Of a DNA stretch of 64,000 nt, positions 61,559 through 64,000 are shown piece after piece. Source of the DNA: Candidatus Saccharimonadota bacterium (lineage in GTDB: Bacteria; Patescibacteriota; Saccharimonadia; Saccharimonadales; Saccharimonadaceae). Position 1 is the first letter of the stretch. Every line of letters starts with the position of its first letter. The DNA lies in NCBI GenBank assembly GCA_017509895.1, contig JAFWOH010000001.1, positions 1,454 to 65,453 on the forward strand. The letters are read 5' to 3'. The position numbers were made by a program, and so were the translations under genes. The notes below the pieces were generated by a model. The model was not told the origin of the DNA. It searched no databases and saw nothing but the letters and a program-made list of their open reading frames with translations.

Positions 61559-61708
61559 ATTGTCCTCCGTTTAATTGTTAATGACTCGAGGATATATTAG
61601 GTCGAAAATTTCTGCAAGCATAACCTTGATAGCATAAAAAGTTTCGCCCCAAGAAAATCGTTGACTATATTACAAATTTATAGTGGTTTTAGCATAGGCT
61701 GTTTAGCC

Positions 61709-63142
61709 CTATTTAGCCCATTTGGCGAGGCGAGAGAGAAAGGCTTTGGCATCTTTTTCGCTCATTTTAGTGGTTTGGAAAGATTCATCATAGACTGTCG
61801 GGGTGATTTCGGTCTGGAGGAGTTTATTATTCCAGAAATAATGAGTTAAGATGAGCGAGCGCTCTGTACCGGGCCAATAGGTCTGGTCGAAGAAGAGATT
61901 GCCGAGGCCATAGTAAATCGGCTTGTCATTATAAAGCTCAAAAGTTTGGGGTTGATGAGCCTGTGTGCCGACGACCATGTCCGCACCGAGATCGATTAGA
62001 TGTTTAAAGAAAGCTTCTTGCTCCGGCCAATCGGACTCGCCGGCGTTTATCGGATAGTCGCAGGTTTCATGCTCGACAAAGCCATCTGGATAGCAATAAC
62101 ATTCGTAATATTGGACATCGACGATGACGAAATCACCCCTTTCTTTAGCCTCTTTGATTTGCTTTTTGGCGGTTATTTCATCATAGATATTGGCACCGGG
62201 AAGTGTGTCGGTGGCGCCGCCACCGCCGGGCTTTGTCGTGGAAAGATTAAAGCCGAGCCAAGTAATTTTGGTATTTTTTTGATTAATTTCTAAAGGCTTT
62301 TTGGCATCCTCGGCATTTTCGCCGCCGCCAAAAGTTTTGAGATTGTTATCATGATAGAGTTTTAAAGTGTCTATGGCCGCGGCCTTGCCGACATCGACAT
62401 TGTGATTGCCGGTTAGCTCGACAATGTCGGTACCGATAGCCTTGATGGTGTCGAAAACCCGGTTATCGGCGCAGAGGACGGTAGAGCTAGAATCGGTCTT
62501 GCAATCATCGGCGAAGGAGACCTCATTAGAGATGTGGGTAAGATCTGATGAGCTGAGAAGGTCTTTAATATTCTCGGCAAAATAAGCGCCGTCTCCGACC
62601 TGATTTAACTTTGTCTGGATGCCACGAGCGAGAGCGGTGACGCCGGTCTGGTTTAGGCTTAAGACTTCGGATTTGTCAGTCGGGAAATTTGGTAGGCGGG
62701 CCTTGATTTTTTCGGCAATGGTATTTTGCTCCTCTTGATTTCCGCTTTTGATTTTAATGATTTTGAATTTTGCGCCAGATTTAAAATCGTCTAGATAATT
62801 TTTGCCGTCTTGCTCGGTGATGCGGACGGAACTGTCTAATTCCTCAAACGGGATGTATTTAGTTTCGCCATGATAGTAGAAATCTACTACGGGGACCTCG
62901 ATACCTGAAATTAATTCTGAGCCATCTATGCTTGTGACGGTCTCGCTAGAGAGGGTTAGGTCATTTTTTAGTTTTTCATCTTTTAGAATCTCCGCAAGGA
63001 GGGATTTTTCTTCGCTCCCTAGGCTGTCGTCATAAATGACTTTTCCGCGAGGGAGATTAATAAAATACATAATTCCGCAGACGGCGGCGAGGACGATAAT
63101 AAAAGTGATGATGATCCCAAAAGAATGGCGTTTTCTATTCAT
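61709..63142 (-). CDS. CapA-family (PGA_cap) metallophosphatase-fold protein with N-terminal TM
   Basis: TGNHNVD.G, GADMVVGTQAHQPQ, IYYGLGNLFFDQ. Confidence 0.85.
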   Translation of the reverse strand: MNRKRHSFGIIITFIIVLAAVCGIMYFINLPRGKVIYDDSLGSEEKSLLAEILKDEKLKNDLTLSSETVTSIDGSELISGIEVPVVDFYYHGETKYIPFEELDSSVRITEQDGKNYLDDFKSGAKFKIIKIKSGNQEEQNTIAEKIKARLPNFPTDKSEVLSLNQTGVTALARGIQTKLNQVGDGAYFAENIKDLLSSSDLTHISNEVSFADDCKTDSSSTVLCADNRVFDTIKAIGTDIVELTGNHNVDVGKAAAIDTLKLYHDNNLKTFGGGENAEDAKKPLEINQKNTKITWLGFNLSTTKPGGGGATDTLPGANIYDEITAKKQIKEAKERGDFVIVDVQYYECYCYPDGFVEHETCDYPINAGESDWPEQEAFFKHLIDLGADMVVGTQAHQPQTFELYNDKPIYYGLGNLFFDQTYWPGTERSLILTHYFWNNKLLQTEITPTVYDESFQTTKMSEKDAKAFLSRLAKWAK

Positions 63143-63187
63143 AGGCTAATTATAGCACAGAGATTTTTTGAATGAAAGCACGGATAG

Positions 63188-63313
63188 TTTAGATTTTAGC
63201 ATAGGAATTTTAGAATTTAGCATAGGCAGTTTAGATTCTAGCATAAGAATCTTTAGATTTAGCATAAGAGGTTTAAATTTTAATATAAGAATCTTAAGAT
63301 TTAGCTTAAGGAT
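63188..63313. repeat. Six tandem degenerate 21-bp repeats (consensus TTTAGATTTTAGCATARGAAT)
   Basis: Exact 21-bp period starting at 63188, 63209, 63230, 63251, 63272 and 63293; ends at the -10 of the GH97 gene. Confidence 0.9.
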
Positions 63314-63330
63314 TGTAGTATAATATAGAT

Positions 63331-64000
63331 ATGGGACTATTTTCGTGGCTGTTTAGAAAACCGGTTCTAGAATATGATAAGACTTTTGCGAGCCCGAATG
63401 GGCGAATAGTTTTGAAGGTGCAATTAAAACTCGGCCAGCTTTTATATTCGGTCTATCGGGATGGAAAAATCATTATACGAGAGTCTCATCTCGGGATGAG
63501 GCTACGCGGGGATGACCCGCTTTTAAATGGGCTAATGATAGTCCGGGTGGTAGAGAAGACTTTTGATGACACTTATGAATTACCATGGGGAGAACAGAGA
63601 GTGGTGCGAAATAATTTTCGGGAGGTAGCACTATATCTCTCGGAGACCGGCGGGAAGAAGCGTTTGTTTACGATGCGGTTTAGAGTGTTTGATGACGGGG
63701 TGGCATTTCGCTATGAAATCCCGCCTCAGCCAGAGTTTCAGAATATCGTGATTTCAGAAGAATTGACAGAATTTAATGTGGACCTTAATTCCCTAGCTTG
63801 GCATATCCCGGCCTATCAGCCGGATAGGTATGAATATAATTATGAGCGGAATGCACTTTCGGAGATTGATCATTCTGTACATACGCCACTCACCATGCAG
63901 GTGCCGACAGGCTATTATATTTCGATTCACGAAGCGGCGCTCTATAATTATGGTTCGATGACTTTAAAACAAAATCGAGACCAGATTTTAGCGGCGGATA
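63331..64000 (+). CDS. Glycoside hydrolase family 97 (SusB-like alpha-glucosidase), 5' part, truncated by the window
   Basis: SPNG..., S.LG, PWGE...VRNNF.E, FRVFDDGVAFRYEIP, RYEY.Y, TPLT, IHEAAL. Confidence 0.85.
   Translation, partial: MGLFSWLFRKPVLEYDKTFASPNGRIVLKVQLKLGQLLYSVYRDGKIIIRESHLGMRLRGDDPLLNGLMIVRVVEKTFDDTYELPWGEQRVVRNNFREVALYLSETGGKKRLFTMRFRVFDDGVAFRYEIPPQPEFQNIVISEELTEFNVDLNSLAWHIPAYQPDRYEYNYERNALSEIDHSVHTPLTMQVPTGYYISIHEAALYNYGSMTLKQNRDQILAAD

Follow-up and report, generated by a model that had tools for sequence, protein, structure and literature searches.

What is the function of an array of 21-bp repeats that occupies the space between two divergently transcribed genes in a Saccharibacteria genome, and how did it arise? 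The array lies between a capA-like gene and a GH97 gene in the window, i.e., in the whole stretch of 64,000 nucleotides that was analysed. A previous sequence-only reading of this DNA offered three explanations: an iteron-like operator array for cooperative protein binding, a stack of tandem promoters or RNA polymerase decoys, and a copy-number-variable expression dial. Here, we compare the array with the promoters of the same genome and with the corresponding loci of related strains and lineages. As judged from the sequence, the array is best described as a minisatellite built of promoters rather than as a protein-binding iteron array, and it probably tunes expression.

Results

The Array Fills the Control Region between Two Genes That Look Leaderless

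TRF found a period of 21 bp at 63188–63318 (6.2 copies, 72% matches, 6% indels, score 125) and described the same stretch also as a 42-bp period (3.0 copies, 84% matches, score 153). A repeat search gave six copies, with a start-to-start distance of 21 bp five times in succession, and a decayed seventh copy at 63166–63187. The array is thus a set of six to seven tandem direct repeats of the 17–22-bp class spaced by 21 bp; in units 4 and 6, the register is kept only via compensating 1-bp shifts within the unit. Together with the Pfam assignments of the flanking genes (Table 1), these searches confirmed the initial description of six 21-bp units between divergent capA-like and GH97 genes, and its coordinates were correct. 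The array was also said to abut the GH97 −10 box, and this was borne out, its end lying 0–5 bp before the TATAAT. It fills the 164 bp separating the capA and GH97 −10 boxes, that is, the control region of a gene. The neighbourhood, which comprises capA, GH97, a cutinase-VWA gene, nrdD, and YhhN and YgjP-like genes, shows conserved chromosomal synteny. The consensus 21-mer (up to three mismatches allowed) occurs three times in the window, each time within the array, vs. 0.01 occurrences expected from shuffles, and TRF detected no second array of such kind in about 265 kb of related Saccharibacteria loci, so that the proposed search for the same array elsewhere gave nothing within this DNA. An Rfam search of 62000–64000 (E ≤ 1) returned no hits.

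Table 1. Features of the capA/GH97 intergenic region and examples of the leaderless layout in the window. Bits are scores against the promoter matrix; percentiles refer to all positions.
Feature	Position	Strand	Description
capA-like gene	61709..63142	−	PGA_cap PF09587, E = 9e-39, 477 aa; predicted leaderless, no Shine-Dalgarno before ATG
Real capA core promoter TGTGCTATAAT (extended −10)	63149..63159	−	Ends 6 nt before ATG; predicted TSS, A at 63142; 14.1 bits
u0, decayed CGTGCTTTCATTCAAAA	63166..63187	−	23 bp upstream of the real box; 71% copy in register; 4.7 bits
u1, TCCTATGCTAAAAT, promoter-grade extended −10	63188..63208, hexamer 63198..63193	−	11.1 bits, 99.97th percentile
u2, weak box TATGCTAAATT	63209..63229	−	4.9 bits
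u3, TCTTATGCTAGAAT, promoter-grade extended −10	63230..63250, hexamer 63240..63235	−	11.8 bits, 99.97th percentile
u4, TATGCTAAATC, no T at −7	63251..63271	−	<4 bits
Two-unit segment absent in ~95%-identical strains	63265..63306		42 bp; joint 63264->63307 in X10, X11, X19 (three studies)
u5, TATATTAAAAT, TG lost, hexamer intact	63272..63292	−	8.1 bits
u6, decayed TTAAGCTAAATC	63293..63313	−	<4 bits; opposite strand is spacer and −35 region of the GH97 promoter
GH97 −10 box TATAAT	63319..63324	+	6 nt before ATG; predicted leaderless TSS 63331; 12.5 bits
GH97 gene, N-terminal part	63331..64000	+	GH97_N, E = 1.5e-51; truncated at window end; 675 aa in L001
Leaderless-layout examples	40533(+), 49143(+), 38876(−), 26112(−), 24031(−), 16906(−), 14793(−), 7327(−), 2763(−), 850(−)		TGnTATAAT-N6/7-ATG

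Both flanking genes share the same layout: a −10 box, six bases, and ATG. The capA gene reads TGTGCTATAAT-TAGCCT-ATG on the minus strand (hexamer 63154..63149), and GH97 reads TATAAT-ATAGAT-ATG; both genes look leaderless. This layout is widespread in the window, where extended −10 boxes (TGnTAnAAT) are frequent and very often stand 6–7 nt ahead of the ATG of a long ORF. A stricter screen, for TGnTATAAT followed after 6–7 nt by the ATG of a long ORF, gave at least 23 other genes. Leadered genes are a minority and carry GGAGG-type ribosome-binding sites, as does the cutinase-VWA gene; capA has no such site. Leaderless mRNAs thus seem to be the default in this genome. Targeted literature searches gave no paper that deals with transcription starts or leaderless mRNAs in Saccharibacteria.

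The Units Are Copies of the capA Extended −10 Promoter

On the capA strand, every unit reproduces the extended −10 promoter of capA, TrTGCTAwAAT. The unit on this strand is ATTCTTATGCTAAAATCTAAA, and its core TATGCTAAAAT is one position off TATGCTATAAT, the commonest extended −10 of the genome. The TGCT recurs every 21 bp through the clean units, then after a further 21 bp in the decayed u0, and then after 23 bp in the real capA promoter, which is therefore the last member of the array. When u1 and the real promoter are aligned through to the start codon, 15 of the 21 positions agree, as read from the sequence. What was once the hexamer of u0 now stands where the capA promoter would have its −35 box. 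The 21-bp period is a consequence of the length of the duplicated unit.

To score the units, we used a matrix of 14 positions built from the 23 other leaderless promoters of the window, most of which score 11–16.6 bits, with three weaker sites at 5–7.5 bits. The minus-strand boxes listed in the sequence-only reading are all present (TGCTAAAAT at 63201–63193, TGCTAAATT at 63222–63214 and TGCTAGAAT at 63243–63235), and the first and the last of them, which belong to u1 (11.1 bits) and u3 (11.8 bits), fall inside the range of most training promoters. Including the real promoter (14.1 bits), the region thus holds several sites of the same orientation that match the genome's own promoter consensus. 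Four units out of six have lost one of two elements, the TG or the −7 T. The whole window contains 51 positions reaching 10 bits or more, and apart from the trio of the real promoter, u1 and u3 there is one other same-strand pair within 70 bp, so that three such boxes on one strand within 90 bp are rare in 64 kb. Towards GH97, only the real box attains at least 10 bits, and the array is therefore directional. Among the three explanations proposed earlier, tandem promoters or polymerase decoys are the best supported by these data, as the units copy the capA extended −10 and two of them score like promoters. In the two RNA runs (X25, X26), the only contigs found were of depth 2 and 151 nt long, and they lay inside capA.

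Two further candidates were set aside. A structured RNA was dropped, since the predicted fold of the putative 119-nt leader does not surpass that of shuffled sequences (z = 0.23) and there is no Rfam match. Each strand of the array has one open frame, giving a 51-aa ORF on the plus strand and in-frame ATGs on the minus strand, but a peptide-coding role was rejected, as the copy number varies freely and some relatives have no array.

The ATGs within the TATGCT of u1–u4 share one frame, the period of 21 bp being equal to seven codons. This frame (63143–63268 on the minus strand; 1130–1233 in L003) is open down to a stop 3 nt before the capA ATG, which is TAG in the window and TGA in L003. Any mRNA begun at one of the upstream units would thus include a small ORF that terminates at the capA start; this could allow re-initiation, and it may also be due to chance.

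TATGCT boxes also occur at 61600–61700 on the minus strand, between the capA stop and the cutinase-VWA gene: CCTATGCTAAAA, which is the same 12-mer as in u1, and TTATGCTATCAA and TTATGCTTGCAG, which are 14 bp apart upstream of this leadered gene with its GGAGG site. A metagenome scan for three TATGCT boxes at 21-bp spacing gave at least 120 loci, and among the matches listed almost all were unrelated minisatellites or coding repeats. Two of the loci bear intergenic 21-bp arrays, with 14 copies of TATGCTAAGAACTAAAAAATG (L038, 5447–5744) and four copies of TATGCTATAAnCAAAAAnnAT (L146, 7332–7415). They are unrelated look-alikes on contigs of Bacteroidota type, as indicated by a Por_Secre_tail domain (L038) and a TAnnTTTG promoter (L146); the likeness may be a coincidence or reflect a general tendency of AT-rich boxes to amplify.

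The Number of Modules Varies from One to Eight among Related Lineages

The divergent GH97/capA pair is conserved in relatives with 60–100% CapA identity, which are Saccharibacteria MAGs from the gut of sheep, goat, roe deer, yak and buffalo. Counting the real capA promoter as a copy, we found one copy in L004, L011 and L154 (−10 boxes 17–18 bp apart), two copies in L005, L007, L008, L009, L153 and L158 (36–38 bp), five copies in L003 and L006 (101 bp), six copies in X10, X11 and X19 (122 bp), and eight copies in the window, L001, L002, X1 and X4 (164 bp), L001 and L002 being identical base for base. The repeat-number variation anticipated for related strains was thus found. With 10.5 bp to the turn, the centre-to-centre distances of 23, 44, 107, 128 and 170 bp all exceed complete turns by 0.19; as every step is 21 bp, the rotational setting of the two promoters stays constant.

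The promoters themselves persist throughout this series. The arrangement TGnTATAAT-N6-ATG for capA is kept in every lineage compared, and in all ten of the relative loci scored the capA box reaches 10.4–16.1 bits at the same distance to the ATG. The GH97 arrangement, CAT-N6-ATTATA, is conserved in all relatives keeping GH97. In the one-module loci, each −10 box occupies the −35 position of the opposing promoter, and the distal box of lineages with two modules never reaches 4 bits.

In the CapA tree, the window falls into one clade with L003/L006 (support 100/99), and five or more copies are confined to this clade. The u0 sequence GTGCTTTCATTCA is identical in L003/L006, and the u1 box ATGCTAAAAT is also identical in the L003/L006 ortholog (10.9 bits) at 88% CapA identity, with diverged flanks. 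The window and L003/L006 share u0, u1 and the real promoter as orthologs, which dates the array to before the two diverged.

In L157, which at 60% CapA identity is the most remote of the relatives with this gene pair, the spacer at 1396–1500 is 105 bp long and contains irregular GCTTA(A/G) boxes at distances of 28 and 34 bp; this may be a much older, decayed expansion. In two relatives (L005, 3001; L158, 1501), the capA start was miscalled on the ATG of the distal TATGCT unit, adding 13 residues, while the conserved -10-N6-ATG start lies 39 bp downstream; such repeat-unit ATGs are a warning for gene callers.

Close Strains Differ by a Two-Unit Deletion and by Point Changes

We compared close strains using the assembled contigs of public runs only. 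Strains identical across the locus, from several samples and studies, all have eight copies; in X1 (103x) and X4 (83x), 8-kb contigs cross the array without a difference. In contrast, strains about 95% identical to the window in three studies have lost 42 bp (Table 1), a size that matches the higher-order 42-bp repeat seen by TRF (84% matches vs. 72% for 21 bp). In other strains of about 95% identity (X27, X18, X16, X14), the window spacing is kept over the parts covered. The earlier idea of a copy-number dial was therefore half supported: the number ranges from 1 to 8 between lineages (1, 2, 5 and 8 between those of species level), and a 42-bp deletion allele exists among strains of about 95% identity; a change in expression with copy number is putative.

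Point changes hit both the good and the poor boxes. In X20, 63193 A>G destroys the T at −7 of u1; in X12 and X16, 63238 C>T turns the u3 hexamer into TAAAAT, which is still box-like; 63221 C>T in X27 and 63263 C>T in X18 remove the TG of u2 and u4, respectively. The u1 and u3 boxes are unchanged in four strains, which is not significant, with about 1.5 hits expected by our own estimate, and other strains change both. The evidence for selection on the extra boxes is thus mixed, and any effect on fitness is putative.

Contigs of four low-depth runs (X6, X7, X8, X27) end inside the array at 63272 and 63291–63293, and those of high-depth runs span it; either sparse coverage or concealed differences in length could account for these ends. 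In X4, X11 and X13, contigs of single-module relatives (CAT-N6-ATTATAGCATAAGATTTT) were found alongside eight- or six-module strains, with loose ends at 63313. As single-module contigs come from the same samples, a single gut community harbours lineages that differ in the state of the array.

Discussion

How the Array May Have Arisen and What It May Do

Our results show where the units come from, which way they point, that they resemble promoters, and that their number varies, so that an origin by amplification of the capA promoter, with a variable number of copies, is very probable. The 21-bp module holding the capA extended −10 would have been repeatedly duplicated in tandem by slippage or unequal exchange. 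In the presumed ancestral state, seen in relatives, the leaderless capA and GH97 promoters stand back to back with their −10 boxes 17–18 or about 37 bp apart, and at 17–18 bp two polymerases would be unable to occupy them together. In the lineage of the window, the capA module would have been amplified to eight copies, later as 42-bp double units.

As to function, we lean towards copy-variable promoter modules that add starts towards capA and separate the overlapping divergent promoters. At least u1 and u3 are predicted to load polymerase and to start transcription 44 and 86 nt upstream of the capA ATG. The longer transcripts would probably be poorly translated, because capA looks leaderless and has no Shine-Dalgarno sequence, and genes of this organism have a leaderless start or else a GGAGG site. 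During their synthesis, polymerases would run across the real promoter and interfere with it. At the same time, the divergent promoters would have been moved 164 bp apart in exact steps of two helical turns, and so would be uncoupled with their rotational setting unchanged. As a net result, expression of capA, and possibly also of GH97, would be set by the number of copies, more copies either raising or lowering it.

A bolder version of this, which we consider doubtful, is a contingency-type dial in a CPR episymbiont: the extra copies would act as competing starts yielding untranslated leadered transcripts, and their number, changing by 21 or 42 bp at a time, would set both the amount of polymerase that reaches the one productive promoter of capA, a surface-polymer gene, and the competition with the divergent GH97 promoter. 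If true, this would be a way of tuning leaderless genes not described before.

Alternative Explanations

The main rival is that the array is a neutral product of slippage, which we regard as possible rather than probable. It assumes the same origin by duplication, the extra units being decaying relics tolerated because 21-bp steps disturb neither of the real promoters. Several observations are consistent with this: u0, u2, u4 and u6 score 5 bits or less, the distal units in all two-copy lineages stay below 4 bits, u1 is disabled in one strain (X20), all strains with an exact match to the window at the locus have one and the same copy number, and about 265 kb of related DNA hold no other such array. 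What neutrality explains less readily is that two of the units equal many real promoters of the genome in score, so that polymerase binding would be hard to avoid, and that the u1 box has stayed identical across 88% CapA identity between diverged flanks. Moreover, from general knowledge of polymerase footprints, widening the gap between overlapping promoters from 17 to 164 bp should alter their interference.

Plasmid iterons, e.g., the 19–22-bp repeats bound by Rep initiators, resemble the array in being direct repeats of about 21 bp with two-turn spacing, and by analogy each unit might be a site for a protein (regulator, nucleoid protein or replication initiator) that binds cooperatively along a single helix face. 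The exact 21-bp period fits this idea, as does the TATGCT, which in two-copy relatives has survived better in the distal units than the hexamer has. Three cassette promoters (47415, 48504 and 59140) also have a core TTAGCATA, always equally far upstream of their −35 box, with no usable −10 on either strand; these promoters are copies of one another and therefore count as one observation. At these sites (47415(+), 48504(+) and 59140(−)), we observed TTAGCATrA 7–8 bp upstream of a TTGAC −35 in the promoter orientation of three related strong promoters; the opposite strand reads TGCTAA, with no T at −7, so there is no obvious divergent promoter. An operator or iteron-like array is nevertheless improbable, and the iteron-like claim of the sequence-only reading was not supported: unlike iterons, the array has no rep gene or origin context and lies at a chromosomal locus conserved without it in relatives, no regulator or initiator gene stands beside the locus in any relative, in close relatives this gene pair has no more than one or two units between its members, the window holds no complete 21-mer outside the array, and TATGCTATAAT is simply the commonest extended −10 variant of the genome. 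Still less probable, to the point of being hardly credible, is a phased, curved DNA or UP-like element in which a two-turn period would sum small bends and activate the GH97 and/or capA promoters. The period does equal 2.0 helical turns, and the units are AT-rich with short A-tracts, but these tracts are 7 bp apart within a unit rather than 10–11 bp. In an exploratory test with a wedge model, the end-to-end/contour ratio was 0.965, straighter than 61% of the window tiles of the same length (mean 0.948); shuffles behaved similarly, and the positive controls, phased A-tracts, gave 0.26–0.38 as expected. Thus, of the helical phasing proposed earlier, the 21-bp period is real, and the model predicts no intrinsic curvature.

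Comparison with Known Systems

It is chiefly in pathogens that variable promoter-region repeats are known, mostly as tracts of 1–7 bp, and in hifA/hifB, TA repeats lie between divergent promoters. In E. coli, single genes may have tandem promoters, such as rrn P1/P2 and gal P1/P2. Like these, capA is preceded by several consensus-grade −10 boxes of one orientation; unlike these, its boxes stem from recent serial duplication, their number is strain-variable, and capA is leaderless, so that a normal mRNA would come from the proximal promoter only. Closest to the capA array, together with hif, are the 7-bp promoter-region repeats of Haemophilus influenzae hmw1A/hmw2A (PMC12721329) and the T-tract rheostat of Helicobacter pylori sabA (PMC4081817). 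The capA array shares with the hmw, sabA and hif dials a tandem repeat in the control region of a surface-related gene and a copy number that changes by slippage and differs between strains, and with hif also the involvement of two divergent promoters. It differs in that the unit is a 21-bp core-promoter minisatellite and not a 1–7-bp spacer or 5′-UTR repeat, and in that its host is a CPR episymbiont; as the units have diverged (72% matches), switching is probably slow, unlike in those systems. The intergenic VNTR/MIRU-type minisatellites of Mycobacterium tuberculosis (PMC12817950) likewise have a strain-variable copy number and may affect neighbour genes, but their units are longer and form dispersed families at many loci, whereas the capA array is a promoter amplification at a single locus.

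What is unusual in the capA array is that a leaderless gene's core promoter serves as the repeat unit. Even a neutral array would document the duplication and decay of promoter modules. If the tuning is true, the alleles with 1, 2, 5, 6 and 8 copies would form a natural series for the study of promoter interference and leaderless translation. The host lineage, Saccharibacteria, consists of ultrasmall episymbionts of the ruminant gut with few regulators, and if the copy number tunes capA/GH97, it would provide such reduced genomes with a cheap, regulator-free adjustment of surface-related genes.
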